Source: Chloroflexota bacterium
GTDB lineage: Bacteria > Chloroflexota > Dormibacteria > Dormibacterales > Dormibacteraceae
DNA length: 64,000 nt
Assembly (NCBI GenBank): GCA_005887685.1
Contig: VBHJ01000015.1
Location: 2,540 to 66,539 of the forward strand
Direction of reading: 5' to 3'
The notes beneath the pieces were generated by a model. That model was given only the letters and a program-made list of their open reading frames with translations, did not search any database and was not told where the DNA came from. A program made the translations under genes and the position numbers. This document shows, one piece after another, positions 2 to 19,483 of this stretch. Positions within the stretch are counted from its first letter, which is position 1. Each line of letters opens with the position of its first letter.

Positions 2-3000
2 GGCACCCCGGTCCAGACCCTCGTGCAGGAGAAGGGCATCCCCGAGTTCGGCGTCCAGATGTACGGCAAGCAGAAGGTGGATCTCCAGGGCAACCTGCTC
101 TACCTCGACGCCCAGGACAACGAGACGACGACCATCACGGCGGTGCCGGCGATCGAGCAGGTCAAGTACGGCACCGCGGGCGGGCAGGCGCTCTGGTTCG
201 ACGCGACCGGGCACCTGGTCTTCGATTCGTCATCCGGCCTCGCGGTGATCCTGACCGCCAAGTCCGGCGACCTGGGTGCTGTGCCCGTGTACGTCACGCC
301 GAGCTTCGCCAAGGTCTTCGCGCAGCTCGGCCCGAACGTGCTGACCAATGGCAACTTCGCCCAGCTCGTGCCGTTCAACAGCACCGCCGGCGGCTGGACA
401 ACTGCGAACCTCGGGACCGGCGGCGGCTGGATCGGCGGCAGCAGACGCTTCTTCACCCCCAGCAGGGTCTTGCTGCTCGGGACAGGGAACACAAACGCCC
501 CGCCGACCCTGTCGCAGCAGCTGGCCAACCTGGCTCCAGGCGCCATCTACCAGCTGAGCTTCCAGCTGTACCCGTACGGCACGCTGGCCAACACCGACAC
601 GACGAAGTCGTTCGGCGCCTTCTTCATCACCGCCGGGTCAAACGGACAGCCGGCCCAGCAGACGATCACTGGCGCCCAGGTCAGCCGGAGCGACTTCTCC
701 ACCCAGAGCTGGACGACTTTCACCGGCACGTTCGAGGCCAACGCGACGTCAGGCATCCTGTCGCTGCAGGCGGAGCTGAACGGCGACCTGAAGGACTACT
801 ACATAAGGAATGTCGTCCTCCAGGCGACCAACACGCGCAGCTACGCGACCGACTTCGCCGCCGGTAGTGACCTGTTCATCGATCACTCCGGCCGCAAGAC
901 GACCGAGCCCAGTGGCGGCAAACCGTCCCTGTTCCCGGTCAACGACACGGAGCTGATCTCATTTGTGCGCGTCGCCGACGTGGTCCAGCCGACGACGCCA
1001 AGCCACGTCACGCTCGACATCGTCAACAAGACGGCCGTCAACACGAACGTCACGCTCGGCACGTACCGCGTGGCCGACAGCCAGCTCAGCGACGGCCAGC
1101 CTGTGCTGCATGGAACCGGGATGGCCGGCTACTACCTCAACCCGGCCCAGAAGCTCTACTTCGGCGGCGAGCCGGTGATCGACCCGCTGACGAAGGGGCC
1201 GATGTACTACTCGGCCGGCGAGCCGGTGCGCGACCTGTTCACCGGTGCGGACCTGAAGGATCCGTTCAACAACACGCTGCTGCACACATGCGATCCGACC
1301 ATGAACACATGCAATGCGGCCGCGCCCACGTGCAACTTGACGCCGCCGCTACCGCCCGCCCCGCCGAAACCGTGCGATCCGATGCTGCACATCGCGGGCG
1401 AGAACGTGGTCCACCTGCGCGGCGACAACCTGCTCTTCTACGGCGGCGAGCAGGTGGTCGACGAGAACGGCAACCAGGTCTACTCAGGCAGCGCCCCCTT
1501 CCAGTACGTCGCGGGCCAGCCGCAGATCTCCAACCGGCGCCAGCAGGCCTACGGCCTGGTCACGAACACCGCAAGCGTCGTGGCGTTCGACGCCACGAAC
1601 TTCACGCCGCCCACAGCGAATCTATCGAGCATCACGTCCGCGACCACGCTCGATGTGGGCGTGCTCACCGGCGGCTACACCCTGACCGCGACCGACCAGG
1701 TGATCATCACGGTCTACGACCGCACCAAGATCTACAACCTTGCGTGCCCGGTGGCGACGTGCGAGGACGTCGCCGGCAACCGCATCCTGCTCGGCGCGGT
1801 GGCCCCGGCCATCGGGCACGCCATCGCAGTGAAGCTGCAGATCGTGGTCGCGATGAAGCACACCGCGACCGACAGGCAGCAGTACTACGGCGATGAGGCC
1901 GTCCAGCTGGGTCAGCCGATCCTGGACGTGAGCGGTGGTCTTCAGCTGGACAGCGGCAAGAACGTGATCACGTACAGCGCATCGCAGCTCACCGAGGTCA
2001 AGCGGGAGAGCTTCTTCTTCACCACGGCCGGGCAGACCATCAACCTGAACACCACGCCGGCGTCCGCAGTGCAGATCGTGATCGGAACCGGGCTGGAAGC
2101 CGTGACGCTGACGGTGTCCGATTACACGCTCGCCGGCACGACGCTGACGCTGACTCCGACCGAGCCGGCGGTGAAGAGGGGCCAGCACATCGCGATCAGC
2201 TACATCGGCCCCGTGCTCCACGGCCGAGGCGACCCGATCTACACCTTCGACGCCGCGACCAGCACGTGGGTAGTCGCGAAGTACGCGGGCGGCGAGCCAG
2301 TGCTGACGCTGGGAAGCGAGCCGGTGCTGTACAGCGGCGGCCAGAACGCCTTCTACTCGACGGCCGACCCGATCCAGCCGCAGCCCGGCGCGCTCGAGTA
2401 CCGCGTGCAGGTCGACGGCGTGCCGGGCGACATCCTCTACTCGGGCGTCGACACGGTCGACCTGACGCTCGGCGGCGGATCGAACCTCGTCACCGTGGTA
2501 ACGACCCACACCGGCAGCACCAACATCTGGACGGGATCAGGCGCGGACAAGGTGGCGGTGCGGGAGATCAACGGGCCGACCACGATCTGCACCGGCGACC
2601 AGGCCAGCCTCAACACCGGCTGCACCGGTGGCAACCTCACCAACCCCGACCCCATCTTCGTGGGGAGCGAGGCCGGCCAGTGGCCGACCGGATTCTGGAA
2701 CGTGCTTGGCAACGCCGAGGCGATCAAGGCGTCGCTCACCGTCCACGGCGGCGGCGGACTCGACTCCGTTTGGGTGGATGACACCAAGGATCCGAACCCC
2801 CGCACCGGCGACCTGACGAACACCCTCCTGAGCGGCGTCTTCGGCCTTGGAGGAACGCTGACCTACACGAACCTCTCGGCGCTGAACGTCAACCTCAGCG
2901 ACCTCGGCAACACGTTCAACATCCACAGCACTCACGGCAGCGCCTCGCCCGACCCGATCAGGACGACGAACGTAAACGTCGGCGCCGGCATCGACACGGT

Positions 3001-6000
3001 TAACGTCGAGACGATCTCCGGACCGACCAACGTGACCATCGGCTCGGTGACGAACGTGGTGCGCGTGGGCAGCACGACGACGGCGACAGATCCCGCGCTG
3101 TATGCGGGCAGCACGCTGGACCACATCTCGTACGGCTACCTGTCGATCGCCGGCGGCATGAACACGACGGCGCTGTACACGTTCGACTCAGGGCCGACGC
3201 TTCAGACGCAGAAGACTGGAACGCTGAGCTCGACGAGCCTGGTCGGGTTCGGTATGACGTTCGGCATTCAGTACAACAACGCCGTGAACACGATCTCCAT
3301 GAGCCTCAGCAATGTCAACAACAGGCTCGTCATCGACTCCACCCTTCCTGGCACCGTGCTGTCTGTCTTCGGCGGGCACCGCGACCCGGTGGTCAATCAC
3401 TTCGATGACGTCGTCATCATCCGCTCGGTCGGCGGGCCAACCACCATCACGGGGGGTAAGGGCAACGACCACATCCTCGTCAACTACACCGCGGCCGGCG
3501 ACCAGACGTTCCTCAACGGCCTGAACGGACCCCTGACCTTGATCGGCGCCAACGGCAGCAACCGCTACGACATCGGCCTGTCCGGCATGGCTTCACCGAC
3601 CGGCGCGAACGTGACGCTGATCGACGTCAAGAGCGGCATGATCGAGCTTGGCGACGTCAACCAGCTCAACATCTACGGCAGCGCCAACCCGGTCTTCTTC
3701 ATGCTTCGCGCGAATCGGGCCGTCAACCCGAAGACGGCGATGGTGGGGGCCTTCCGCGAGGACGCCAACCACAAGCCGATCCTCAACGGCGTGATGGAGC
3801 GCGTGAACTACGACGAGGGCATCAATGGCGGCCTCACGGTTTACGGACAGGACGGAGGCAACACGTTCGTCCTCGACGACAACCTGGCGCCGACGACGAT
3901 CTTCGGTGGCAACGGCGACAACAACTTCCAGGTCGGCCAGGTGTTCAAGTCGCCTCGGGACGGCACGAACCCGAACAGCGGACTCGCCGCGAAGGACTTC
4001 TTCCAGACCACGCAGGTCACGCAGGGCTTCCTGAGCAACGGCATCAGCGCCCCGACCACGCTGTACGGCGGCGACGGCGACGACAGCTTCACCGTCTATC
4101 ACAACCTGGCCGAGCTCTGGCTGTACGGCCAGGCGGGCAACAACACGTTCACGATCCGCTCCTTCGTGCGGGTCAACCCGAAAGACCCCAAGGCCCCGGT
4201 GACCAACATCAACGGCGGCACGGGCAACAGCTTCATCAGCTACACCGTCGACGCACCGGTCCGGATCGACGGCGGTGAGGGCTTCGCGACCCTGGTCGTG
4301 CTGGGCACCGACTACGGCGACGACTACTACATCACCGACAAGGGCATCTTCGGAGCCGGCCTGTTCGTGACGTTCGTGCGGGTCCAGCGCGTGGTGGTCG
4401 ACGGACAGGCGGGCAACGACCGCTTCTTCGTCGAGAGCACCAGCCCGGGCGTCGAGCTCGAGCTCGTGGGCAGCAAGGGCAGCGACACCTTCAACGTGGG
4501 CGGCGGCAACAACGGCAAACCGATCACGGTCGTCAGCAACAGCCTGGAAGGCCACAGCGGCCTGATCGCGAACCTCATCCAGAGCGCCGACTCCGCGTAC
4601 AACAACCTCCAGGCGCCGTGGATCTCGGCCCACGTCTACGACAGCGAGGCGCCGGGCGTTGTCATCAGCCAGCAGGCGCCCCTGATGGTGTTCGCGCAGA
4701 CGACGCCTCCGGCGGGCGCCAGCCTGACGGTCGACACCTACACCGTGGTGCTCACCCAGCGGCCGGCGCAGGACGTCATCGTCAGCGCCGCGGCCACCCC
4801 GCCGAACGCGCGCCTGCAGCGCGCGGGCGCCAAGAGCATTCAGCTCTGCACCCTGAATCCCAGCCCACCCGACCCGCTCAACCCGTGGACATGCCAGGAC
4901 GGCGGGACCACGCTGCTCTTCTCACCGGGCAACTGGTACAAGCCGCAGACGGTGCGGATCGTGGCCCGGCCGGACGCGGTCGCGCAGGGCAACCACTTCA
5001 TCGACATCCTGCACACGGTCCAGGAGGGAACAAGCGGCAACGGCGGTCAGCCGTATGACGGCCTCCCGGTCGATGGGTTGGCGGTCGAGGTTGTCGATCC
5101 GAACACGGCGTCGGTCGTGCTCACACCGTACGACCTGACCGGCAAGCGGGGCAACGGCGTGGAGAACGGGCTCCTGGTCGCCGAGAACCCGCAGGGCGAC
5201 CTGCCGGCGACCGACTCGTACGCGGTTTCCTTGAGCAAGGCGCCTCTCAACAACCTGGTCGTCGAGGCGCAGGCCGACGCCGGCTCGGAGATCTGCAGCG
5301 GAACCTGTGTCTGGAACGCATCCACCGGTTGGGGCTCCACGGTCGACCTCACCTTCACGACCACCAACTGGAGCGCCGTCCAGTTCGTGAAGATCCGCGC
5401 GGTAAACGACGGCCAGAAGCGCGGCCTGCACTTCTCCCGGATCACCAACGCGATCACCACCAGCACCGGCGACTTCCTTGGCCTCAAGCCGGGTGACGTC
5501 GCCGCCGGGCTCGCCGCCGCGGTCAATGGCGACCCGGCCGGCCGGTTCAACGCGTGCACGGGCACCTTCCAGCCCGACGGAAGCTGCCTGGCAGGCACAA
5601 CGCAGACCTTGCTGAGCATCACCGGCCCGGCCTTCACCGCCGTCTCGACGGCTGGCGCCTCAGGCTCCAGCGCGATCGACACCAGCGCCTCGACCAAGGC
5701 CTTTGCGGGCTCGGTCACCGCCACGGTGGGCGGCAACGTCCTGGGCGGCGATAGGTGGACGATCACCCTGGACGGGAGCTCGTATACCTTCATCTCGACG
5801 TCCACCGACGCTGCCGACACGGCCAACGGACTGATCGGCCTGGTCAACGGAAGCGGTGTCTTCCAGGCGACGGCGGCGGGGACGCACGCGTTCACCGTCG
5901 CCAAGGCGAGCGGCGAGCCGTTCGCCGCCACCTTCACGTCCAGCAACTCGGGCGGCGCTCCGCTCCTGACCGGTGACCTGGCGACCGCGGTGATCATCAA

Positions 6001-9000
6001 CAACGGACCGCCCACCGATTGGTACGCCACGCTCGTCTATGACGTGAGCCTCAACCTCGGGGCCACGGTGCCGTCCGGCGAGCAGTGGTCGCTGAAGTTG
6101 AACCGCACCAACGACCCGAACACGGCGGTGAAGTACACGTGGTTCGCGGGCCGGCACTCGTTCACCAAGCTGAACCCCTTCGACGTCAACGTGACGGACG
6201 CGAACTCCGGAGGCGTGCTGGTGTTGCAGCCCACGGGTTCGACCAGCGTGATCGAGCCGACCCAGACTGTGATCCTGGGCGACGGGTCCGTGCGGCTGAC
6301 ACAGTTCCCGGCCGGTTGCTTGAACGGTCAGCAGCTCTCCTGCTTCTACGGTGACTTCGGGACGTCCGAGGTGAACTCGCTCAAGTACCACGGCAGCTTC
6401 GGAACCGCGCAGGACCTCGATGCCGCGAGCTGGGGCATGGCGAACAACTCGGACATCGCAAACTCGACGACCGTCGAGCACCTGACCGTGCACGGGACCG
6501 GGACCGGGAACATCGATTACTACAAGTTCAACATCACCGCCGCCGAGGTCGCCGCGATGGCTCTGCAGCCCGCGACCTTCGGCATGACGCACGGGTTCCA
6601 GTTCGGTGACTCGGTCGTCTGGGCCAGCAAGCTGCGGCTGTACGACCACAACTTCAACCTCCTGGCCCAGGGCCCCGGCTTCTCCAACCCCAACGACCAG
6701 AGCAAGGGCACGGGCAGGAGCACGTGGCTGAACGACTACCTGACCTACACGTTCACGAGCGCGAACGACTACTACCTCGTGGTCGCCGGCTGGCTGTTCA
6801 CGAGCACCGTGCCAAGCGGCGCTCACTACGACCTGCAGGTGTCGATTCCGAGACACCCGACGGCGAACCTCATCTTTGCGCCGGTCGCGGTGCCCAAGAC
6901 CGGTGTGACTCCGCAGCCCATCGACGGCGGGACCATCGGCGGTAATGACTTCTACCGCCTGTTCAACGCCTTGGCCGGCGACGCCGAGCTCGGCGGCACG
7001 ATCAACTGGCAGACGCCGTTCGCGACCATCACCGGCACGAGCGACGGCTCGAACTTCGAGGTCTACTCGTTCACGATCGCGCAGGACATGCTCGACCCGC
7101 AGGCGACGACCGGGGTCACGACCGGTTCCATCCTGGCGACGGGTACCTTCTACACCAGCGCGACCCTGAAGCTCGACGGCAGGGTCTCCGCCAATGACGT
7201 GTGGCACCTGGGCGTCCGCAACCACGACTACACCTTCAACGCCAACGCCACAGACACCCTGGCCTCTGTGGCCGCCGGCCTCGGCAACCAGCTGCCCGCA
7301 CCGTTCACGACCGAGGTCGTCACGGATAACACCGGCACCTACCTCACGATCGCGAACCCGAACGGCTTCCAGCTCGCCGGCCAGACCTACAACGGCTTTG
7401 CGCAGCTCGCCAACAACGCCGCCACGGTGACGCGCTCGACGACCGTGATGCAGGCTGACGGCACGACCCCGGTGACATTCACCGCGGCCGAATTGACGCT
7501 GACCGGCGCTCCTGCCGCGGGCGAGACCTGGACGTTGACCGTCGGCGGCACCGCGCACCAGTACATGACCCAGTACGGGGACTCGCTCCACACGATCGCG
7601 TCCGCGCTTGCGACGGCATTCGGCCTCACTGCAGCCCTCAACACCATCTCGTTCGCGAGCCTGAGCACGGCGACGATCTCAGTCTCGATTTCCGGTAGCT
7701 CGCCGAGCGGCGCGGCGACCATCTCCGGCACGCCGGCGCAGTCGATGGCCTCCAGCATCTCGTGGACGGACGCGAAGGTAGCGATTCCCGCCTCCATCAC
7801 GCTGCGGCCCGGAGACCAGTGGGCCATCGAGCTGCTGGGCCCGTCGTCGCTCAAGACGCCGCCTCACACGGTGACGAGCACCGACACCGCAACGACCGTG
7901 GCGGCCGCCCTCGCCGCCGGCTTCGGCTCAGCCACCGGCTACACGATCAGCGCCAGCGGTGACACGCTGGACATCAGCCGCGCCGCCGCATTCAGGGTCG
8001 TAGTCACCGTCACGCCGGCGGGCGGCGCCGCCGATGGGACTGCACACTCTCACACCGTCACGTTTGCGCCCGCGGGCGAAGCGGGGACCTGGACGCTGAG
8101 CGTTGCCGATGCGATCACCTCGGCAGCAATCGGGACCGCGACCTTCCACGCGAGCGGGAGCAGCACTGCGTACGACATCGCGACGGGCCTGTTCAACGTC
8201 GGCGGTGTCCACGCCACAAACCTGGGCACCGCCCTGCTCCTCACCAGGCTCGCCCCCGCCGGCGACTTCACCGCCACCGTCACGCTCACCCCGGACGGCC
8301 AGATCTCCGCGGCCGCAACCAGCGCCTGGAGGGTGACGATCCCGACGGTGACGAGCGGCGATTCGTTCTCGCTCAGCGTCAACGGCACCGCCTACGTAAG
8401 CACCGCCGCCTCGAACACGGCCGTCGCAGCCGGGCTCGCGGCCGACCTGGCCGCTGACACCCAGCTGCTGGCCAGCTCGAGCGGGGCGGTCGTGACCATA
8501 GTCGCGCTCGCGTCGGGCATCGCCGATCCGACCCTGTCGAAGAACGGCACCCAGCTCACCAGCCCGAACCCAGTGGCATCCGCGCCGGCTCAGCTGTTGA
8601 CGCTCAGCGCCCCGGTCGTGGCGGGCGAGACGTGGAAAGTGACGGTCGGCGCGACCGCGGTCCAGTACGTCGCCCTGGGCGGAAGCACGTTGAGCGACAT
8701 CGCAAGCAACCTCGCCTCAAGCCTGCGCACCGATGGTGTCACGGCCCTGGCGGCCGGAGCGCAGCTCGGCCTGCTTCCCAGCGGCGGCACCGTGACGACC
8801 GCTGTGATCGCCGCCACGGCGATGCCGGTGGCCGCGACCTCGACCACCAACACGGAGACGCTCACCGGGCCGGCCTACACCGGCGACACCTGGACTTTGA
8901 GCTTTGCCGGCTCGACCACCACCTACCCGATCACCGCCACCCCGGCCGACATGACCAGCCTGGCGTCGGCCATCGCTGGGCAGGTGGCGCCGGTCACGGG

Positions 9001-12000
9001 TTACTCGGTCTTCGCCTCAGCCTCGACCATCTACATGACCAGCGTCGCCGGTGGCAGCTTCACCAGCTCGGTCACCGTCGCGCGCGACCCGAGCGCGTCC
9101 AGGGCCACGGTAAGCGGCACACCGCACCTGGGCTGGGTCGAGAAGATCTCACTTCTGCCGGCCGGATCGAACCCGGTTCAGACCGGCGACCGGTGGACCG
9201 TCTCAGTCAACGACGGCAGCCTCGGGTTCCTGGCAACTACGACCGCGTCGGCCAGCCAGTCGATCGCGGACATCGTCGCCGCCCTCGCGCCCCAGCTGTC
9301 GAACTTCAACGCTTCGGGGTCGACGGGAGACCTCGTCCTCTACGCGACCGACGGTTCGCCGCTCACGATCGCCCCGGTCACCCAGTTCCGGCCGAAGGCC
9401 GACCTGTTCAGTGCCGCCGACACGACCACGTTCACTGAAGACGTCCGGCCCCACTACTACAAGTCGGTGTTCACGCTCTTCGGCAACGACTCCACCGGAG
9501 GGTGGTCCGCGGGTGAGGTCTGGACGGTGACCGTCGACGGCAAGCCGTACACGTACACGGTGCCGTCGACCACCGCGCCTGCCGACCGCACCCTGCAGAC
9601 GATCGCCGCCGGGCTGGTCGCGGCGATCAATGCCACCACCGACCCGATCACCGCCTCAGTCGCGTCGAACAGCCCCACCATCACGATCGCCGACAAGGAC
9701 GTCGCGACCGGCGGCACCGATCCATTCGTCCAGGTGATCAAGCGCGGCGGCGGCCACGTCACGGGCGTCTTCAATGCGGCCGGCGTCGGCGACGTCAGCG
9801 GGAAGGTGGAGGTCTCGACCGTGCCTCCGCAGTACCAGTGGCTGATCAACCTGTTCCCGTTCTTCAGGTTCTACTTCGCCAACGACACGCTCTCCTTCAC
9901 CTCGGTGCCGGTGCTGCAGCTGCTCGACAGCAATGGCACGGTCCTGGCGACCAACGTATGTGCGCCGACCGGCACCACCTCGACCGGGCGCTACTGCTCC
10001 ACGAACGCCATCCCCGGACCCGGGTCTACGCCGGACCCAGTCCTCCGGTACACGTTCAACGCCCCGGGCATCTACCAGGTCCGGGTTGGCTCGCTGCGGA
10101 AGTGGAAGGACCAGACGGACACCCTGCACCTGGCCAACAACTTCCGGAGCGACACCCCGCTGAGCGACGTCCTCGCCGGAACCGTCCTGCCAGACCCGCT
10201 TGCCGCGGGCCTCGCCTACACGCTCCTCGTCTCGCTGCAGCGCCACGCGACCAACCCGAACGAGATCTCGCTCAAGAACCAGAGCATCCAGATCATCTCC
10301 GGCCCGGGCGCGGGGAAGACGGCCACGATCAAGGACTACGATCCCGAGACCGGGCTGTTCACGCTGGCCGCTCCCACGCTCAGCGTCCCTGGCTGGGTCC
10401 TGCCGGCAGGCACCACCGAGGCGCAGGCCAAGTCGATCAGGTACGAGATCTCCGAGCCCATCACGACGGCCTCGCCCGACTACACGCAGTCCACCGACAG
10501 CTATGGAGTCCTGCTGACGAGCCAGCCGGCGCAGAACGTGACGGTCAACGTCGTCCCGCAGGCGACCCCGACGTATGACTCCTCGCAGGTGTTCAACGCA
10601 TCAGCCAACTTCGGGCTGAACGACACCGTTCAGGTCCGTGTCAAGACGCCGCAGGCGACGTTCCGGTTCGGAGGCGTCCCGGGCGCGGGCGAGGTCTGGA
10701 GCGTGGTGCTCAATGACACGCCCATCTCCTACACGGTCGCAACGGGCGACACCCTGGCGATGGTGGTCTCCAAGCTGGCGGGCAAGGTGGGCGGGGCCTT
10801 CGTGGCGACCATCAACGCCGCCGACCCCTACACGCTGGTCGTGACGTCTGCGAGCGCCTTCTACTCGAGCTTCCAGATCACGGGCATCGGGCCGGCCGGG
10901 GATACCGGTGGCACAGGGACCATTACAGGCAGCGGCGCCGGCGCAGTCGTCACGCTCGCGGACACGGCCGCGGTCAACGAAGTGTGGAAGTTGACGGTGG
11001 ACGGCACCGACTACGCCTACACGCTGAAGTCCACCGATACAGTGCAGACCGCCGGCGCTGCGCTGGCTGCGCTGCCTCCCTCCGGCACCTACTCGTCGGT
11101 GTTCGACCTCACCACGAGCACGATCACGGTGAGCCGTGTCGACACGCGGACGGTGTCGGCCTCCTTCTCAGTGTCGACCGAAGGGGCGCCGAAAGCGAAG
11201 GTCGCCGCGAGCAGCATCACGGTCGGCCTTGGCGGCGCTCCGGCTCAAGACGAGACCTGGACCTTGACCCTCGACGGCGTCGCGTACCTGTACAAGGTCC
11301 AGTTCCGCGACGACCTGGCCACCATTGCCGGCAAGCTCGCGACTCAGCTGCCGCTCCCGACCTATGACGTGTCCCTCTCGGGTCGGGTGATCACGATCGG
11401 CCGCGTTGATGGAGCCGCCGCCGCGGCGACGTTCGCGATCTCGCCCGACAGCAAGGGTGGCGCCTCGGTCTCGCCGCAGCTGGTCTTCACTCCGAGCAAC
11501 TGGAGCACCACCCAGTGGGTGACGGTCCAGGCGGTGCCGAACAACCTGGTCGATGGGCACGACGCGCTGGTCTTCCCGCCGATGGACAACCGCGTGAACC
11601 AGATCCGCGGCCCGATCACGATCAACGGCGGCATCGGCCCGAACCCGGAGCCGTTCCTGAACAACCCGCTGATGCTGCCGGGCGAGAAGAACCTGCCGAT
11701 TCCGGATGGCACCGTCACGGGAGCTGGCACGAACGCAGAGCTGGCCTCGATCATCGACCTGTACGCCACCCACGTCAGCGCCCAGCACGGCGAACGCCCG
11801 GGCTTCGACCCGCGCATGAACGACTCCACGTTCTCGAACCAGTTCCTGAACGGGTTCTTCGCCGGGCAGTCGTTCGACGTCAGCTCGGTCTCCAAGGACA
11901 TCCTGTCCTTCGCGAACACGACGCCCTTCGCGGTGGGCTTGCTGAAGAACTCCGTCGCGGCGACGACGTCCGACGTCCAGTTCGTCGGCACGCCCGACCA

Positions 12001-15000
12001 GGCAACCGTGGGCACCATCGCGTGGTCGCAGGTCGCGATCGCGCTGACCGGCCTGGCCTCCAACGCAGAGGACTGGAAGCTGAGGCTGGACAGTGTCGAT
12101 TACGACGTCAACGTGGGCCCCGGCGGGGATGTCGCCTCGCACATCGCGCAGCTGCTCGCGGCCGCGCTTCCCTCGGTTTACCTGGTCGAGCTCAGGACCG
12201 GATTGCTCGGTGACGCCCGCATCCTGATCAAGGGCCGGACCGACGGTCTCCCGATCCACGTCAGCTTCACGATTACCGGCCCGAACACACCCGAGGGCAA
12301 GGCGATCATCACCGGCACTCCCGTCGCGCTGCCTAAGATCGCGGACGCCACCAAGTGGACGATGGGCGCCTACAGGTTCATCCAGGCACCGGTGGCGACT
12401 GACACGTGGACGCTGCAGGTGGCCGCCACCACCTCCATCTACCACGTCGTCGCCAAGGACGACATCTCGGTGCTCACGAGGAAGCTGGCCCAGGGCCTCA
12501 GCTCCGCCTTCGGCGCGCTGGTCTCGGGCAGCCAGATCACGCTCAAGGCTGTCTGGCCGCTGAACTCCAACGGCCAGCCCATCACGCCTGCCGTGGGCGA
12601 TCAGTACGCGCTGCAGCCGGTGAACCTGAACACGCGGGTCGATGAGTCGACCACTGTCGACACCCTCAACGTCTTCAACAACGGCAGCCCGGCGGCAGAA
12701 ACCGGCGTGCTGACCGAGAGCACCCTCACCGGCCTGGGCATGGGCGGCGACACGGTGATCGACGGCCAGACGGTTGCGGGCGGAATCACCTACCGCAACC
12801 TGGAGTCGCTCAACATCCACCTCGGCAGCGGCAACCAGATGTTCACGGTGAAGGGCACCCACGACGGCAGCACCGAAATCTCCGCCGGAAACGGCAGCAA
12901 CACCTTCAACGTCCTGACCCTCAACGGGCACACGACCATCGACACCGGCAGCAACACTCAAACAGTCGTGAATGTCGGCAACGCCGGTCTGATCGATCGC
13001 GTCGGCGGCCTGCTCACCATCGACACCGGCTCGGCCGGCGCCGGCACCGGCACGGTCAACGTGGACAACTCGGCTGAGACACGCGACACGCTCGCGACCC
13101 TCACCGGCTCCTCGCTGACCGGGCTCAACATGCCGACGATCGCGGAGGAGCAGACCATCCACCTGCGCGGCGGTGGCGGCTCCTACCAGCTCGACTCGGC
13201 AGACCTGGAAGCGCTGAACTCGCACCCGGTGACGCTCAACTACCTCGACAGCGCCGCCCAGCTGGAGGCCGAGCTCGAAGCTGCGTACCACCTGGCCGCG
13301 GGCGGCATCGAGGTCACCGAGCTGCGCACCAGCTCTGACGTCACGTACACGGTCAGCTTCGTCGGGGCCAACGCCGGCAGGCACTTCGACCAGCTGCAGT
13401 GGACCAGGAGCTGGACGTTCACGGCGCCGGCCGGCGACCCGATCACCGGCGCTTACAACGTCACGGTGCCCGGCCGCGGCACGGTGACGCTGCACGTCAC
13501 AGATGACGCGAGTGTGGTCCAGGCAGCGCTGAGTCAGCTCTATGGACTCGGCGGCATCAGCGCGCTGGACGTGAGCACCGGCGTCTACACCGTGGTCTTC
13601 AGCGGTCCGAGCCTCGTGCTCGACCTCGGCCAGCTGGCCGGAGCGGCGACACAGGTGGTCGCCCAGCTCCAGCCCAGCTCGGACGGATCGGCACGCGCCG
13701 AGACCGGGTTCGTGCGCGACGGCACGACGGCGCCCACCCGGAACACCGTGCAGACGATCACCGTCAATGCCAGTGGTGGCTCGTACGTCCTGCACTTCGT
13801 GCTGCCCAACACAAGCGGCGTGCTGCAGGACGTGGCGACCGGACCGATCGCCTACAACGCTTCTGCCGACGACCTGCTGTCCGCATTGAGCGCGGTCCTC
13901 AACCCGAACAACACGAACCCGTCGCTGCCCTGGACGTTCAACGTCGCGGTAGCTCAGCACGGCGGGACGTACTACGTCACCTTCCTCGGTCAGGACACGG
14001 CACAGCTGATCGCGTACATCGACACCAGCAAGCTGACCGGCAAAGCGACGGTGGCGACGCGCTTGAACGGCATCGACTACCGCGGCGTGGGGACCCTGAA
14101 CATCAAGCTCGGCTCGGGCACGGACGTCTTCAACGTCCAGGGCACCTCCGCGGTGACCAACCTCAGCACGGGCGCAGGCGATGACCGGGTCTACGTGTCG
14201 TCGACCGCGGGCGTCGGCACCACCCAGCACCCTGACTACCTGCCGGGCGCCCTCGCGAACATCGCCGGCACGCTGAACATCGACGCCGGCGGCGGGCGCC
14301 ACACGCTGATGGTGAGCGACGAAGGCTCGAGCACCGGTGACGCCAACGCCCTCATCACCAGGGACCCCCTGGCGGCGGCGGCCCGCGACCAGAACGTGGC
14401 CGCGAACGCTCAGATCTTCATGCTGGGATTTGCGAGGGCCGGCATCACATATCGGACCACCGGCAACTTCGCGGGCGGGCTGACCTTCTGGACCGGCTCG
14501 GGCAACGACAACATCACCGTCAATGCGACGCATTCAGCGGCCGGCGTGAACGAGATCACAATGCTGAACACCGGTCTCGGAAGCGACAACGTCACGGTCA
14601 ACCTGCTCAGTGGCCTGGACGGCCCGTTCGTGCTCAACACGCAGGGGGCGTACTACAACCTGCTTCAGCTGTCGACGCCGCTCTTCACCGGTGACTACAA
14701 CGCTGCCCCTGACGTGGTCGGCGTCACGGTGAACGGATTCGCGCAGGTCGGTGAGCAGTTCCTGGTCAACCCGTTGCTCAGCGCCGCGGCGCTGACCTAC
14801 AACCCAACCGCGGGTTTGGTGGCCGTCGTCTCGATCCTCAGGTCGATCGTCGAGGCCTCCGTCTTCGACGGGTCGGGCAATGTGAAGCTCGCCACGACCC
14901 TGCAGTCAGGCGACGTCGTGAGCGCGACGGTGAACGGCGTGCCGGTCGGCGCCGTTGACCTGACGCAGCCCGACACGCACACGATCAACATCAGGCCGAC

Positions 15001-18000
15001 GGCGCAGCGACCCGCCGGCGCACTGGTGCTGGTCACGATCGTCCACAAGATCACGCAGTCGTTCACTCTGCCGCAGCTTGGAACGAGCGGCGGTCTGAAT
15101 GACAGCGACGTCGTCAACGCTCAGGGCTCGACGCTCCCGCTTGTGATCTTCGGCGGCGAGGGCAACAACTCCATCACCGGTGGCAGCGGCGGCGACATCA
15201 TCCTCGGCCACCGCGGGCTGGTGCTATACGGCGCCTCCACCGAGGCGCAGGCCGGTGTCGTGCTCGGGCATGGCGGTCCGGGCGACCGGAATGACGCCAT
15301 CGTCCACCCGCTGGGCCTTGTCATCAGCGTCGACCCGACGATCGGCGGCAGCAACACGATCACCGACGGCAACGGTGGGAACGTGATCCTCGCCGGCTCC
15401 GGCAACGACCTGGTCCGGACCGGCTCCGGCGATGACATCGTGTTGGGTGACAACGCCAGGCTCATGTACCAGAACGGCGTGCTGAGCCAGATCACGACCA
15501 TCTTCGACAACATCGGCGGCAACGACACCATCTACGGCGGCGGCGGAGCCGACCTGCTCGTGGGCGGGCCCGGCAACAACGCCATCGACGGCGGCTCCGG
15601 CAGCGATGTCATCGTGGCGGACAACACCGCGCTTGACCGGTTGCCTGGCGTGGCTGTCAATCCGCGGTTCCGCAAGCTGGTGGGCGGCCTGATCTACGAC
15701 CTCACCACCGGGGCCGACCAGGTCACCGCGGCTGCGCAGCCCGACCCGGCGTGGGGCACGACGCCGCCCTGGTGGGCGTTCTTCCAGGTCACCCTCCTCG
15801 ACTCGCTCACCACCGCCACGTCCGGGTACTACGGCAGCAACTACATCGCGGGCGGCGCGGGCGACAAGATGATCTTCGGCGGCTACGGGAACGACGTGAT
15901 CCAGGGCCACTCGTCGATCGACTACCGGCCGCCAACGCCGATCTCACTCACGTGCGCCAACCAGGGCTCGGTGGGCGCTCAGGGCTGGAGCTGGGCCGGC
16001 CTCATCGGAGCGTGCCGCCCGGCGAGCACCAACCCGACCGTGCCGACCACGCTGCTGCTGGTCAACCCGTCGAAGGGCGACCTCGCCGGCGCCGGCACCG
16101 ACGGCTCCTCCTACATCGAAGGCGGCGGCGGCAACGACGTCATCTTCGGCGACTTCGGCCAGAACGACATCGTGGGCGGCAGCTCCGACCTGTTCGGGCT
16201 GACGACGCCGGCGCAGCGCGCCCACACGGGCTCGAGCCTGATATTCGGCGGCGACGGTACGCAGATCGCCCGCGGATACCCGGGTCCGGACTGCGTCGTC
16301 ACTCCGCAGTGCCACGCGGCCAACTCAGAGGTCATCGCGGCCGACAACGCCGACATCTTCCGGCTGGTCGGCGCCAGCGGCGTGTACCTGCGCTTCAACT
16401 ACGACAACTACACCGACGCCCTGCCGGCCGTGCAGCAGGCGCACATCATTCCTCGCGCCGTGCGGCTGCTCGACTACACGCCGGGCGGCCCGGACCTGGC
16501 CGGCCAGGCCGGTCCGATGGTCACGGGAGACATCGGCGGCGCGGCTGAGATCCACGCCGAGTCGGGCGACGCCTTCGTCTACGGCGGGCCTGGCGCCGAT
16601 GTGATCTTCGGTGGCAGCGGAAACGACACGATCATCGGTGGCTACGGCAACAACTGGATCTCCGGCGGCACGGGCCAGAACTGCATCATCGGCACCGACG
16701 GCCGCTGCTACGCCAGCCGCGTCAGCGCCACGGTCGGCGAGCCGCTGTACGCCGTCACGCCGGTGGCTGCGGTCAGCCAGCTGATCTCGCTCCAGGGCGG
16801 CATGCAGCAGGCCGACATCAACGTGAACGGCGCGCTGAAGTACACCGCCCTCGTCTACCCCGACGTCCTCGACCCCACCGGCGCGGCGAGCCCGACGTTC
16901 CGCGGCAAGTGGACCAACAACATCATCTACGGCGGTTTCGGCTCCGACGCCATTCACGCAGGTCCCGGCGAGAGCGCGGTGACCGGAGCCATCGCGCCTC
17001 GGCTCGCGTACACGAACAACTACGATTTCGCCGGCAACAAGCTGAACGCGAAGCCGATCGAGAGCGACTGGTATCACCCGTACAACCCGGGCAACGCCCT
17101 GGGCTACAACCCGGCGACGACCAAGTTCGCCCTGTATGACGCGGCTGACCCACGCCGCAAGATCCTCCTCACCTCAACCGGCTTGCTCGACAAGACCGGG
17201 ACTGGTGTGCTGTGGATCCTCGACTTCGACCCGACCGAGGGCCCTTTGAACAAGTACTGGAGCAACGGAACGGCCTTTGCGCCGAGCCCGACGCAGGGCA
17301 ATGACGCGATCTTCGGCGACATGGGCAACAAGTGGATCGTGGGCGGCCCTGGCCGGAACCGCGTGTACGGCGGCTGGGGCGACGACATGATCGACATCCG
17401 CGGCACGCTCGACCAGAACGGCGGCCTCAACGACGGGACGGTGGCCAACCCGTCCACGGAGAGCCTCGCCTACGGCGGCGCTGGAATCGATGTGTTGATC
17501 GCCAGCTCGGCCGGCGATCGCCTGATCGACTGGGGCGGCAACCTCGGTGGCACGTACCTGGTTCCGTTCTCGCCGTTCGGCGAGCCGACGGTCAGCCGCA
17601 CGCCATCTCCTGGCATGCAGAACTTCCTGCTCCAGCTCGGCCAGAGCGACGGTGCCGACATGACCATGGGTACGCGGCACGGCGGCACAACCGCTCGCAA
17701 CGGGGAGCCGTTCGGTGAGCTCGCCATGATCATTCCTGGGGATGCCGCCTGGGGTGCGCAGCATGGCGCGCCGCGTGACCCGATGGTGCACGGCACGGGC
17801 GGCCGCGACACGAACCGCACCAACGCGGTCAAGCCGATCGAATCGCCGGGCACGCTGGCGTTCATCGACCCGCCCGCAGTGGCCGGTGGGGCGCCGGTGG
17901 GTGGTTCGGTGCTCGCGAGCGTCGGCGCCGCCGCGGCGAGCGCGGCACCGACGGTGGTGACAGGTGCGCCAGGGTCGGTCGCGACGATCACGTACACGGA

Positions 18001-19483
18001 CGGCACCCACACTGTGACCGCGAACGGAATCATCGACGCCAACGGACAGCTTGTCGTCACCGCCAACCTTTCCAGCCTCGCGGACGGCACGGTGACGGCG
18101 AGCATCGTGTTGAACTCGACGTCTGTGACCAGCGCCAGCCTGTTGAAGGACACCTCGGCCCCAGGCGCGCCCCTGGTCGGAATGCCGGCGTATGTGGGTA
18201 GAGCCGGAGTCAGCACCGTGCTGCTGGTCATCAACGGCGAGCCCTGGACCACGGTCGACTACACCCTGTCGGACGGCACCACATGGGCATCCGATGAGAT
18301 GGTCATCGATGACACCGGCAGAGCCACAGCGGTCCTTGACCTCTCCAACTTCGTGGACGGGCCGATCGCGACCACGGTGACGGTCATGGACGTCAATGGA
18401 AACAACAGCGTTTACGGCCAGGCGACCACGACCAAGATCACGGTCGTGCCGGCCGCGCCGGTGAGCGTCGGGCTGGACTCGCGCGACGACTCCGGGATCG
18501 CGAGCACTGACAACCTCACCAACGTGCGTTCGCCGCGCTTTGTCGTCACCGGGCCCGGCACGCCGACCGTGTACCTCAACGGCGCGCTGTACACCGGCCA
18601 GGCCCTGGCGGACGGTCTCTACTCGATGAAGGCGACGCTGACGGACCTGGCGGGCAACGTGTCGCTTGCCACCACCGCGGTACAGCAGGTGCGCATCGAC
18701 ACGTCGGCGCCGGCGGGCACGATCTCCCTCGCCGGAACCCTGATCAATGGTCAGCTCGCGACCAAGAACCCGGTGATAGCGATCACGCTCGCCGTGACTG
18801 ACTCGGGCACCGGCGTCAGCCAGATCGCAATCTCGACCAACGGCGGCACGACCTACGGCGCACCGTTTGCGTACGGCGCCAAGGCGTCCGTCACGCTGAC
18901 GGCCGATGGTCTGTACACGATCGCCGTGAAGGTCACCGACATTGCAGGCAACGCCGCGGTGGCCATGCTTCCGATCCGGCTCGACACGACCGCGCCGGTC
19001 ATCACAGCGTCGCTGCCGGCGCCAACCAACGGAACCTTCTACGACGTGGGCAAGAAGATCACGCTCACCTACGGCGCGGCCGATGTCGACAATGCGACCA
19101 CGACCGTGGTGCTCGACGGTAAGACAACGATCGTCGGTGGGGTCATCGACATCGACACGCTGACCGCGGGGACGCACACGATCGTCGTTGCGGCGACCGA
19201 CGGACTGGGCAACACGACCTCGAAGACCATCACGTTCACGATCCACGCCACGATCAACGGGCTGATCAACGCCGTCAACGACGGCGCAGCCCGAGGCTTG
19301 ATCACAGCCGCTGAACAGGCAAACCTGGTCTGGTACCTCCAGAAGGCCCTGACGGGCAGTGCGAAGGCGCGAATCGGCCAGTTCAACTGGGAGGCGAACT
19401 ACCAGAGCGGCAAGGCGATCAACGCCGCTGAAGCGGCGCTGCTGCTGAGCTGGGGCAACGACCTGTACGCCCGGACGCCGTAA
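2..19483 (+). CDS. 3' portion (at least 6,486 codons) of a giant secreted/cell-surface multi-repeat protein; the frame is open to the left window edge, so the true start lies upstream
   Basis: The frame is uninterrupted from nt 2 to TAA 19481-19483, and the GTG at 23 is only the first in-window start. The product is rich in Thr/Gly/Ala/Val and has sparse cysteines that occur in close pairs (e.g. [47 protein letters not shown]), as in disulfide-bonded extracellular proteins. Domain content is listed in the sub-features below. Confidence 0.92.
   Translation, partial: [6493 protein letters not shown]
335..830 (+). other. CBM/galactose-binding-like jelly-roll segment of the giant protein
   Basis: [27 protein letters not shown] ... 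[11 protein letters not shown] ... [23 protein letters not shown] ... YYIRNVVLQ. This is the NGxFE/W pattern typical of CBM4_9-like modules. The assignment rests on motif resemblance only. Confidence 0.35.
2455..4540 (+). repeat. Degenerate GGxGxD-type beta-helix/beta-roll segment
   Basis: Recurrent [57 protein letters not shown] and [14 protein letters not shown]. Shorter related segments recur near 12650-13140 and 14040-14640 (L[TS]GL.M ... Y.NLE.LNI.LG.G...F.V). Confidence 0.4.
6400..6855 (+). other. PPC (pre-peptidase C-terminal)-like beta-sandwich domain
   Basis: [15 protein letters not shown] ... [10 protein letters not shown] ... [12 protein letters not shown], the DYYxF / YYLxV / YxLxVS pattern of PPC-type domains. 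Confidence 0.4.
7150..9830 (+). repeat. Nine tandem, highly diverged ~90-110-aa modules (G-[DE]-x-W-x-[LV]-x-[LV] ... IAxxLA signature), family not recognised
   Basis: Signature Trp codons read at about 7201, 7528, 7819, 8088, (Phe variant 8360), 8632, 8891, 9194 and 9521. Examples are [71 protein letters not shown] and [40 protein letters not shown]. Confidence 0.7.
9915..10250 (+). other. Second PPC-like domain
   Basis: [16 protein letters not shown] ... [17 protein letters not shown] ... [12 protein letters not shown]. Confidence 0.35.
10650..11470 (+). repeat. Three further copies of the W-x-L-x-V / IAxxLA module
   Basis: [103 protein letters not shown]. Confidence 0.65.
12030..12600 (+). 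repeat. Two further copies of the same module
   Basis: [69 protein letters not shown]. An isolated copy lies at about 5700-5950 ([34 protein letters not shown]). Confidence 0.6.
13140..14040 (+). repeat. Three copies of a second module type (GGSYxLxF ... ASAxxLxxALxxL ... YxVxFxG)
   Basis: [14 protein letters not shown]...[20 protein letters not shown]...[49 protein letters not shown]...[28 protein letters not shown]...[20 protein letters not shown]...[11 protein letters not shown]. Confidence 0.45.
15150..17540 (+). repeat. RTX / hemolysin-type calcium-binding nonapeptide (GGxGxDxUx) block with interspersed inserts
   Basis: [124 protein letters not shown]. Confidence 0.7.
17955..19250 (+). 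other. Run of bacterial Ig-like domains, followed (19250-19480) by a short helical C-terminal domain
   Basis: [28 protein letters not shown] (the DxGxSxTDxxTN motif of adhesin Ig-like domains); [16 protein letters not shown] and [15 protein letters not shown] (DTxAP boundaries). The C-terminus [19 protein letters not shown]...[20 protein letters not shown] is helical and FIMAH-like, at low confidence. Confidence 0.55.

Follow-up and report, generated by a model that had tools for sequence, protein, structure and literature searches.

Results

The window analysed here is the whole stretch of 64,000 nucleotides from a Chloroflexota bacterium of the Dormibacteraceae (assembly GCA_005887685.1, contig VBHJ01000015.1, positions 2,540 to 66,539), and it opens inside a giant gene of the forward strand in which one protein module recurs 15 times. 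The open reading frame (ORF) at 23-19483 (+) encodes 6486 aa and its frame remains open in the 5′ direction back to nt 2, so that the gene is cut by the left window edge and only its 3′ part is present (2-19483 (+), 6,493 codons).

The missing part can be followed in an independent assembly. The NCBI entry OLB91852.1 (4729 aa), cluster mate of one of the homologues described below and labelled 'hypothetical protein [Actinobacteria bacterium 13_2_20CM_2_66_6]', lies on contig MNDY01000299.1 (locus L091), which is 99.5-99.9% identical to the window at the DNA level. This contig is devoid of 145 nt (window 379-523), and the gap splits the giant gene into two ORFs, so that the deposited OLB91852.1 is a shortened 'hypothetical protein'. 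The upstream ORF of L091 (36-9593, 3185 aa), whose 5′ end is still open in the fetched locus, terminates in the peptide GTPVQTLVQEKGIPEF..., which also opens the window. The reading frame hence extends at least ~3,050 codons upstream of the window, and the full protein has at least ~9,500 aa. Five more modules are found in this upstream part (independent E-value, iE, 2e-8 to 8e-13), four of them directly before the window start; together with the 15 window copies, the protein has at least 20 full modules.

The 15 units delimited in the window ORF are 89-100 aa long. A regular-expression scan recovered the signature G-[DE]-x-W-[TSK]-[LV]-x-[LV], followed by an amphipathic helix, at every place named in the original prediction, which had been made from the letters of the window. 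The signature Trp stands at aa 1912, 2394, 2503, 2600, 2690, 2871, 2957, 3058, 3167, 3559, 3655, 3746, 4018 and 4129, and one module has a Phe in its place, at aa 2782. Within the arrays the Trp-to-Trp spacing is 86-111 aa, that is 258-333 nt, in agreement with the 259-332 nt claimed. The copies form blocks of one (nt 5702-5977), nine contiguous (7148-9742), three (10643-11482) and two (12020-12640), which are the blocks that had been announced (one near 5750, nine contiguous, three and two).

Two profiles were used to evaluate the copies. In a leave-one-out (LOO) test, a hidden Markov model (HMM) built from 14 copies was scored on the fifteenth, and all 15 were recovered, with E from 1.2e-24 to 7.2e-6. 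The second profile, A2, contains 130 sequences, of which one is a window copy (module 13) and 129 come from other proteins: 487 near-full-length instances were taken from the 150 best database proteins and thinned to <40% identity, and 130 were aligned. A2 is partly dependent on the window, as it includes the close orthologues P0097, P0069, P0076 and P0001 (48-70% identical). On the real protein it gave 16 domain matches of at least 9 bits, while none of 60 composition-preserving shuffles reached 9 bits, the best shuffled score being 5.7 bits. The prediction of at least 15 copies of a ~90-110-aa module is therefore borne out.

All copies are on the forward strand. Module 1 stands alone (5702-5977, aa 1894-1985; LOO E 7.9e-14, A2 iE 1.7e-15). 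The nine contiguous copies start with module 2 (7148-7426, aa 2376-2468; LOO E 1e-15, A2 iE 1.6e-15), module 3 (7475-7747, aa 2485-2575; 3.6e-16 and 6.1e-19, in the same order here and below) and module 4 (7766-8047, aa 2582-2675; 8.2e-12 and 9.3e-16). They are followed by the two weakest copies in the LOO test, module 5 (8048-8320, aa 2676-2766; 7.2e-6 and 4.8e-5), which is diverged and has one extra residue ahead of the Trp, and module 6 (8312-8578, aa 2764-2852; 3.7e-6 and 1.7e-8), which carries the Phe. The array goes on with module 7 (8579-8848, aa 2853-2942; 4.9e-11 and 2e-15), module 8 (8837-9115, aa 2939-3031; 2.8e-16 and 2.8e-17) and module 9 (9140-9418, aa 3040-3132; 5.2e-11 and 6.1e-11), and ends with module 10 (9467-9742, aa 3149-3240; 1.1e-12 and 1.8e-16), the ninth of the nine. 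The block of three comprises module 11 (10643-10921, aa 3541-3633; 1.4e-17 and 4.8e-19), module 12 (10931-11209, aa 3637-3729; LOO E 5e-17) and module 13 (11204-11482, aa 3728-3820; LOO E 1.2e-24), the copy nearest to the family consensus. The last two are module 14 (12020-12319, aa 4000-4099; 7.1e-11 and 1.6e-13) and module 15 (12353-12640, aa 4111-4206; 1.6e-10 and 6.6e-10). A2 also detected two degenerate partial copies: one at 5366-5707 (aa 1782-1895), after a Calx-beta-looking segment, has only the helix and the C-terminal strands (A2 positions 31-97, iE 6.5e-5), and the other, at 6032-6172 (aa 2004-2050), only the N-terminal hairpin with a GEQW motif (A2 positions 6-33, iE 8e-4).

Pairwise identity between the copies is 10-37% (median 20%), so the repeat is old. 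At the DNA level a repeat is detectable over only ~110 nt, in the Trp-strand and helix region, with 61-70% identity. Judged by these identities, the repeat is the product of ancient divergence, and neither of recent duplication nor of an assembly artefact, as had been proposed. In composition the modules are 50% Ala+Thr+Gly+Ser, with no Cys and few charged residues.

Module 13 was modelled with AlphaFold2, using the other 14 window copies as alignment, and the model is confident (predicted local distance difference test, pLDDT, 90.3; predicted template-modelling score, pTM, 0.81). It contains strands at residues 4-8, 18-23 and 26-31, a helix at 38-47, strands at 54-59, 62-67 and 75-80, and an extra low-confidence strand at 88-92. 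The predicted fold is thus β1-β2-β3-α-β4-β5-β6, a small antiparallel sheet or barrel of six strands, accompanied by one amphipathic helix. The strand-strand-helix order followed by two or three strands, read earlier from the letters, was essentially right, the model adding one N-terminal strand; the module is not an Ig or cadherin variant either, given the helix in the model and the Ig chains that appear in Foldseek only at E>0.4 and a TM of ~0.3. In a model of two modules (aa 3637-3823), built on a six-row alignment of non-overlapping two-module rows, both halves, modules 12 and 13, repeat the β3-α-β3 unit, the pLDDT falls below 50 at the junction and the overall pTM is 0.48, so that no fixed inter-domain geometry is predicted. 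These low values fit with beads on a string in such a predicted arrangement. We conclude that the repeat is a genuine autonomous domain of ~93 residues.

Conservation was read from the 130-sequence A2 alignment of diverse instances. In the strands, the conserved columns are alternating hydrophobic positions (V7, L9, W19, V/L21, L23, Y54, A56, L63, I65, F73 and V79), and in the helix they form one face (L38, I/V41, A42, L45, A46 and I49) that is predicted to be buried. Glycine turns at 11, 16, 25, 60, 70 and 85 and the Asp36-Thr37 helix cap are conserved as well, and the family consensus has an 'IN' pair after the helix (I49 51%, N50 37%). Trp19 is most likely a core residue, since its neighbours on the strand face are 98-99% hydrophobic.

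Searches of named families found little in this region. With the giant protein submitted to Pfam-A in three pieces (E<=0.1), nothing was found in aa 1-4300, and the 15 single copies gave nothing significant at E<=10: the best match was PF25675 Phage_nozzle on one module (E 0.0048, weak and sub-threshold), with other weak single matches to LolA_3, DUF6486 and DUF348. NCBIfam, run on the whole giant protein, found nothing in the module region. As a sequence family, the module is without a name in Pfam or NCBIfam. Strictly, neither a confident match to a Pfam or CATH family nor an Ig or cadherin fold was found. The description of the module as 'unrecognised' stands for its lack of a Pfam or NCBIfam family; it does not stand for the fold, which is already present in solved phage tail structures.

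Several other identities were considered and rejected. For LysM (PF01476), only profile positions 1-16/19 match, additively, in the relatives P0005 and P0088, the full ~44-aa domain being absent, and the window's own copies gave no LysM match (Pfam, E<=10). For a ubiquitin-like beta-grasp, only a 26-residue β2-α1 stretch (ubiquitin residues 7-32) aligns, at 3.8 bits per repeat. Flagellin_IN (PF07196) is a partial motif match in one relative only (E 0.0021), and the similarity to Top7 is again a partial motif match. The strand-turn-helix 'YxVxxGDTLxxIAxxLA' is the source of the LysM, ubiquitin and Flagellin_IN matches, which are individually non-significant, and none of these three folds is among the Foldseek PDB matches of the module. 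The likeness probably reflects a supersecondary motif common to these folds and does not speak for homology.

The extent of the family emerged when 1.84 billion cluster representatives were searched exhaustively with an HMM: 853 proteins at E<=1e-3, 330 at E<=1e-10 and 84 at E<=1e-30. They are mostly giant proteins, the longest of 7,829 aa, and the richest of them shows 30 matched stretches at the search threshold and 11 at a stricter iE<=1e-5. A word-indexed search for homologues, run once with three modules and once with the 130-sequence profile, was uninformative, giving one match each time because low-complexity words saturate its prefilter. The family is spread over at least eight phyla; source groups include Gaiellaceae and Mycobacteriales (Actinomycetota), Gemmatimonas, Planctomycetota, Prosthecobacter (Verrucomicrobiota), Methylomirabilota, Thermodesulfobacteriota, Zavarzinia (Alphaproteobacteria) and Methylophilaceae (Betaproteobacteria). 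Members are labelled 'hypothetical', 'calcium-binding', 'Ca2+-binding RTX toxin-like', 'beta strand repeat-containing', 'FG-GAP-like repeat-containing' and, once, 'phage tail sheath gpL-like'. At least three RTX motifs occur in 21 of the 150 top proteins, and in a small sample of relatives the partner domains are RTX repeats, NHL repeats and TIG domains. Sec or lipoprotein signal peptides were found on a few of the top 150 proteins, most of which are contig-end fragments. The protein with the sheath label, given by IMG, is P0054, a cellular protein (1275 aa, six modules, Sec signal) in which Pfam finds nothing; the label presumably comes from an automated pipeline that caught the same remote similarity as the one described next.

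The closest structures are those of phage tails. Searched against the PDB with Foldseek, the model found at the top the tail sheaths of A-1(L), Milano, PhiTE, 7-7-1 and Mu and the nozzle (tail tubular protein B) of P-SCSP1u, Kp7 and T7, with query-normalised TM scores (TMq) of 0.6-0.77 and E down to 7.6e-4 (8kee, 8i4m, 8fop, 9hz7, 7y22 and 9jyz: TMq 0.67-0.77, E 7.6e-4 to 0.09); these matches are at the chain level, without target residue ranges. The BFVD search gave TMq values up to 0.81, with sheath, tail tubular protein B, baseplate-J-like and small uncharacterised phage proteins. Homology was then tested by hmmsearch of A2 against all PDB sequences. The best matches were gp76, the tail sheath of the Pakpunavirus P7-1 (9zdk, chain 86-169, E 1.5e-5), the P-SCSP1u nozzle gp23 (8i4m, chain 161-241, E 3e-5) and the 7-7-1 sheath (9hz7, chain 95-181, E 2e-4), followed by Phi92 gp130 (chain 89-165, E 1.5e-3), Milano gp20 (8fop, chain 97-180, E 5.4e-3) and the Kp7 nozzle (7y22, chain 162-235, E 0.058). 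The segment of Milano gp20 falls within its outward-lying 'sheath extension domain' (SED; amino acids 91-203), which makes inter-subunit contacts via Cys182 (PMC10811340). The P7-1 sheath is a three-domain one, and the optional outer domain is absent in two-domain sheaths such as that of Pam3 (PMC13338283).

A profile-profile comparison (hhalign) of A2 with seven Pseudomonas-phage sheath inserts gave a probability of 96.1% (E 3.6e-9, 65 columns). By eye, the motif string of the phage inserts is alike, with a Tyr for the Trp, as in the P7-1 example 'ATVSVSVVQEGQSYVLTVNGLPVSYVSQQDDTATLIATGLKAAY..GVTVT..DGTLTVAS'. Among the PHROG families, one of unknown function in virions weakly matches six of the 15 copies (best E 5.8e-5), and the tail-sheath family phrog_165 weakly matches three of 15 (best E 0.0032); tblastn of three modules against 50,697 phage genomes gave no match. 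In Pfam the P7-1-type sheath is covered by the whole-protein DUF3383, the insert having no entry of its own.

For the nozzles, Y146, Y281 and W297 of T7 gp12 bracket the 'nozzle tip' excursion, a beta-barrel in which a helix replaces one strand (PMC6702177). From these residue landmarks, the nozzle match at 160-240 most likely corresponds to the nozzle tip. The 'fibre dock' was considered as the matched region and rejected, as it sits near the C-terminus and the landmarks favour the tip (PMC6702177). Foldseek, the A2 profile and hhalign agree, and we take the module to be remotely homologous to two phage domains, the optional outer one of tail sheaths and the distal one of T7-like nozzles.

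The rest of the giant protein is built differently. An RTX-type Ca2+-binding nonapeptide block lies at 15179-17500 (+), with seven stretches matching the Pfam family HemolysinCabind (E 9.3e-26) and motifs at aa 5053-5818. After it come ~650 aa of Ig-like and helical sequence, so that a C-terminal signal would not directly adjoin the RTX block, an unusual arrangement among substrates of type I secretion. This terminal region (window 18000-19480, aa ~5990-6486) contains Big_13 and Big_3_2 domains (the latter another Pfam match of the giant protein), an OmpL47-type barrel match and then a C-terminal helical segment of ~80 aa; the best-scoring Big_13 Ig-like domain is at 18458-18703 (+) (Pfam E 4.8e-14, residues 1946-2027 of the third query piece). 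Beta-helix-like segments are present as well.

At 13169-14032 (aa 4383-4670) we observed three shorter alpha/beta repeats of ~80-95 aa, with the pattern G-S/A-Y-x-L ... helix (D-x-x-x-x-L-x-A-x-L) ... Y-x-V-x-F-x-G and no Pfam match. An hhalign comparison of the module family with these three repeats gave a probability of 58%, and by sequence a relationship to the family is possible; similar repeats are visible in other family members, for instance at the start of P0094. Calx-beta-looking segments ('VDTYTVVLTQRPAQDVIVSA', 'FSPGNWYKPQTVRIVARPD' and 'FTPSNWSTTQWVTVQAVPN'), again with no Pfam match, lie at ~4600-5400, 10500-10640 and 11480-11650 and precede several of the module blocks, a combination that recurs at the starts of P0026, P0050 and P0127. 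Between module blocks, the regions ~6400-6900 and ~9800-10250 (aa ~2130-2290 and 3260-3410) have by eye the look of beta-sandwiches of the pre-peptidase-C-terminal or collagen-binding type (for example 'DYYKFNI...YYLVVAGW...YDLQVSI' and 'YTFNAPGIYQVRVGS...YTLLVSLQ'), and the segment at ~330-800 (aa ~105-260; 'NGNFAQLVPFNSTAGGWTT...YYIRNVVLQ') that of a jelly-roll carbohydrate-binding domain of the CBM4_9 or DUF642 type, neither with a Pfam match at E<=0.1.

The GC content is ~66% along the whole window, with long spurious ORFs in other frames and on the opposite strand. Those antisense to the giant gene, at 11168-14533 (-), 5660-7591 (-) and 17174-19246 (-), reach 1121 aa; given this GC content and the homologues of the forward frame, they are most likely spurious. 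The genes downstream of the giant gene are all housekeeping: dioxygenase-like genes, a branched-chain amino-acid ABC transporter, an amino-acid permease, glutamine synthetase, an M3 peptidase, the Lhr helicase, a sigma factor, an alpha-amylase, polyphosphate kinase and a CHAD protein, with no secretion gene and no phage gene among those in the window. The glutamine synthetase gene shares 82-90% identity with its counterpart in Candidatus Dormibacterota soil MAGs, among them the 'Chloroflexi bacterium CF_' MAGs. The window sequence is also present on several soil metagenome scaffolds, and the host is accordingly an uncultured soil bacterium of the Dormibacterota type. Of these scaffolds, ENA CRIT18 scaffold_148 should reach ~20 kb farther upstream, and contig MNDY01000299.1 has a further 1,064 nt. 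The window's 5′ end gave no match in two metagenome DNA scans (one exact, one degenerate).

Discussion

We propose that the modules probably serve as spacers or scaffold beads, each folding independently, within a giant extracellular protein that binds Ca2+. With no fewer than 20 copies, in a protein of 9,500 aa or more that also has RTX, beta-helix-like and Ig-like parts, the domain would form beads arranged head-to-tail with almost no linker, and these would make a long, non-aggregating extracellular stalk projecting the remaining domains away from the cell. The surfaces of the modules would be free to vary, and only the fold-determining residues would be kept. This role is suggested because the conserved residues are all fold-determining, the units abut with practically no linker, and each is predicted to fold alone. 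The copies, the fold, the homology, the distribution and the co-occurrence with RTX repeats are shown here, while the extracellular location of this protein and the spacer function are inferred. In tandem-repeat proteins neighbouring domains tend to be diverged, which is thought to limit misfolding, and the low identity of the neighbouring copies fits with such a divergence of adjacent domains. Export would be suggested only by the Sec or lipoprotein signals that a few relatives carry.

Several observations weigh against such a stalk. No type I secretion genes were found in the 44 kb located 3′ of the giant gene, which is the part that this check covers, the upstream 9 kb or more being the giant gene itself. 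Position 17 (Glu/Asp, 84% acidic) is the sole conserved polar position that the fold leaves unexplained. The strong divergence of the copies could mean that each has a binding role of its own, and the extender arrays of classic adhesins show, as a rule, far greater uniformity than these modules of 10-37% identity. The low inter-domain confidence in the two-module model may stem from its six-row alignment alone. Lastly, the phage homologues stand at surfaces in contact with other proteins or with the envelope of the host, a hint of binding over pure spacing.

The last points lead to the alternative that the modules are binding units, each diverged copy offering a weak surface for a polysaccharide, a mineral or a protein, in a multivalent adhesin. 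It would parallel the accessory Ig-like domains on phage virions, and the phage relatives are exposed on the sheath surface or, as inferred from the T7 landmarks, at the tail tip, which in T7 faces the host outer membrane, while the Milano SED contacts its neighbouring subunits through Cys182. The strong divergence of the copies on their surfaces, the conserved acidic residue ahead of the Trp, and partners of the relatives such as NHL propellers and FG-GAP-like repeats, typical of adhesive proteins, point the same way. However, there is no conserved surface patch, the Trp, alternating with the 98-99% hydrophobic positions, most likely faces the core, neither Pfam nor Foldseek revealed any likeness to carbohydrate-binding families, and the phage domains are themselves without a demonstrated binding function. 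We regard a binding role as the main rival of the spacer reading, and as clearly less likely. Far less can be said for a divergent bacterial Ig-like or cadherin-type extender domain, as found in RTX adhesins. The shallow 15-copy profile, when searched against PDB sequences, did weakly match the Ig-like tetra-tandemer of MpAFP RII (E 0.026, with a high compositional bias), and true Big_13 domains exist at the C-terminus of the same protein. But the match was driven by a 'GDTVTLEINGETYTTTV'-type hairpin, and we rejected it as hairpin-level or compositional: the deeper profile A2 drops MpAFP to E 0.3 while the phage matches rise. Moreover, the model has no more than six core strands, with a helix of 10 residues placed between the third and the fourth, the Ig-type chains in Foldseek reach TM scores of only ~0.2-0.35 (at E>0.4), and no copy has a Big_x or cadherin Pfam match at E<=10, all of which makes this identity very improbable.

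The phage similarity could also be taken to mean that the region belongs to a prophage or to a contractile system resembling a phage tail, the best structural and profile matches being the sheath and the nozzle, and one family member bearing the sheath gpL-like name in IMG. What is common to both is only the optional outer domain: the sheath core is absent, no sheath Pfam family matches the giant protein at E<=0.1, single modules at E<=10 have no phage family except the one weak Phage_nozzle match, the tblastn search of phage genomes was empty, and the neighbours are housekeeping genes (ABC transporters, glutamine synthetase, Lhr helicase, polyphosphate kinase). A prophage is hence hardly credible. 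As for a compositional or chance pattern in an Ala/Thr/Gly/Ser-rich ORF of high GC, or an assembly artefact, the modules do consist for one half of these four residues, and long spurious ORFs are common on both strands of this 66% GC window; yet the absence of any shuffle at 9 bits against the 16 matches of the real sequence, the hundreds of homologous multi-copy proteins in other phyla, the confident structure prediction and the same gene at 99.5-99.9% identity in an independent assembly leave practically no room for it, and a DNA-level identity of just 61-70% between repeats speaks against the artefact. The data run counter to all three of the latter explanations (Ig variant, prophage and chance), and the spacer stalk remains the one that we prefer.

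The homology with phage domains invites a broader and more speculative idea, which we put forward with little confidence: the module would represent an unnamed extracellular superfamily, common to phage tails (the sheath surface, the tail tip of podophages and some baseplate proteins) and to giant surface proteins of bacteria from many phyla, exchanged between phage and host, and serving in both as a weak, evolvable domain of contact with envelopes or glycans. If this were true, it would be the helix-containing counterpart of the Ig-like 'decoration' domains of phage virions. Independently of this idea, the novelty of the repeat unit is that of a family to be named and of a tandem repeat in cellular proteins, while its fold is already present in phage structures and the giant extracellular repeat protein is a well-known type of object. 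Few genes of uncultured soil and sediment bacteria are as poorly annotated as those of giant repeat proteins: in this one ~1,400 residues, and in hundreds of others stretches of similar extent, are blank in Pfam and NCBIfam, and a name for the ~93-aa domain would bring annotation to at least 853 protein clusters from eight or more phyla. It would also place the 'optional third domain' of many sheaths, together with the distal domain of T7-like nozzles, in a wider family with cellular members, a link that gives a testable handle on the function of the accessory phage domains. The value of our observations lies in a new domain family and in a phage-host protein link, rather than in a new mechanism or biological principle.

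Compared with known systems, the module has in common with LysM, the ubiquitin β2-α1 stretch and Flagellin_IN a hairpin and a capped helix, whereas its overall topology and size are unlike theirs. The giant RTX adhesins (MpIBP/MpAFP RII, LapA, SiiE, FrhA) are close in architecture: they too are giant, consist of head-to-tail arrays of ~100-aa domains with almost no linkers, and combine RTX repeats and Ig-like domains in one polypeptide. Their extenders are tandem bacterial Ig-like domains, whereas the fold of our module is different and contains a helix, and here ~650 aa of other domains follow the RTX block, which in the adhesins would lie beside a C-terminal secretion signal. The spacer mechanism that we propose may thus be likened to that of the Ig-like extenders of RTX adhesins, with a different fold.

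In fold, the closest systems are the phage ones. The outer or extension domain of the sheaths (P7-1, 9zdk; 7-7-1, 9hz7; Milano, 8fop; A-1(L), 8kee) has the same size (~85-110 aa) and, as compared in the sequence alignment, the same order of secondary-structure elements, and the Pseudomonas-phage inserts carry a Tyr where the bacterial modules carry a Trp. The T7-like nozzles (P-SCSP1u gp23, 8i4m; Kp7, 7y22; T7 gp12, 9jyz) are alike at the profile level and in Foldseek (TMq 0.72-0.77), their domain being a single insertion in a beta-propeller protein whereas the module is a repeat. In the sheaths, likewise, the domain is a single insertion on the outside of the tail, while in the cellular protein described here it is free-standing and arranged in tandem, in at least 20 copies.

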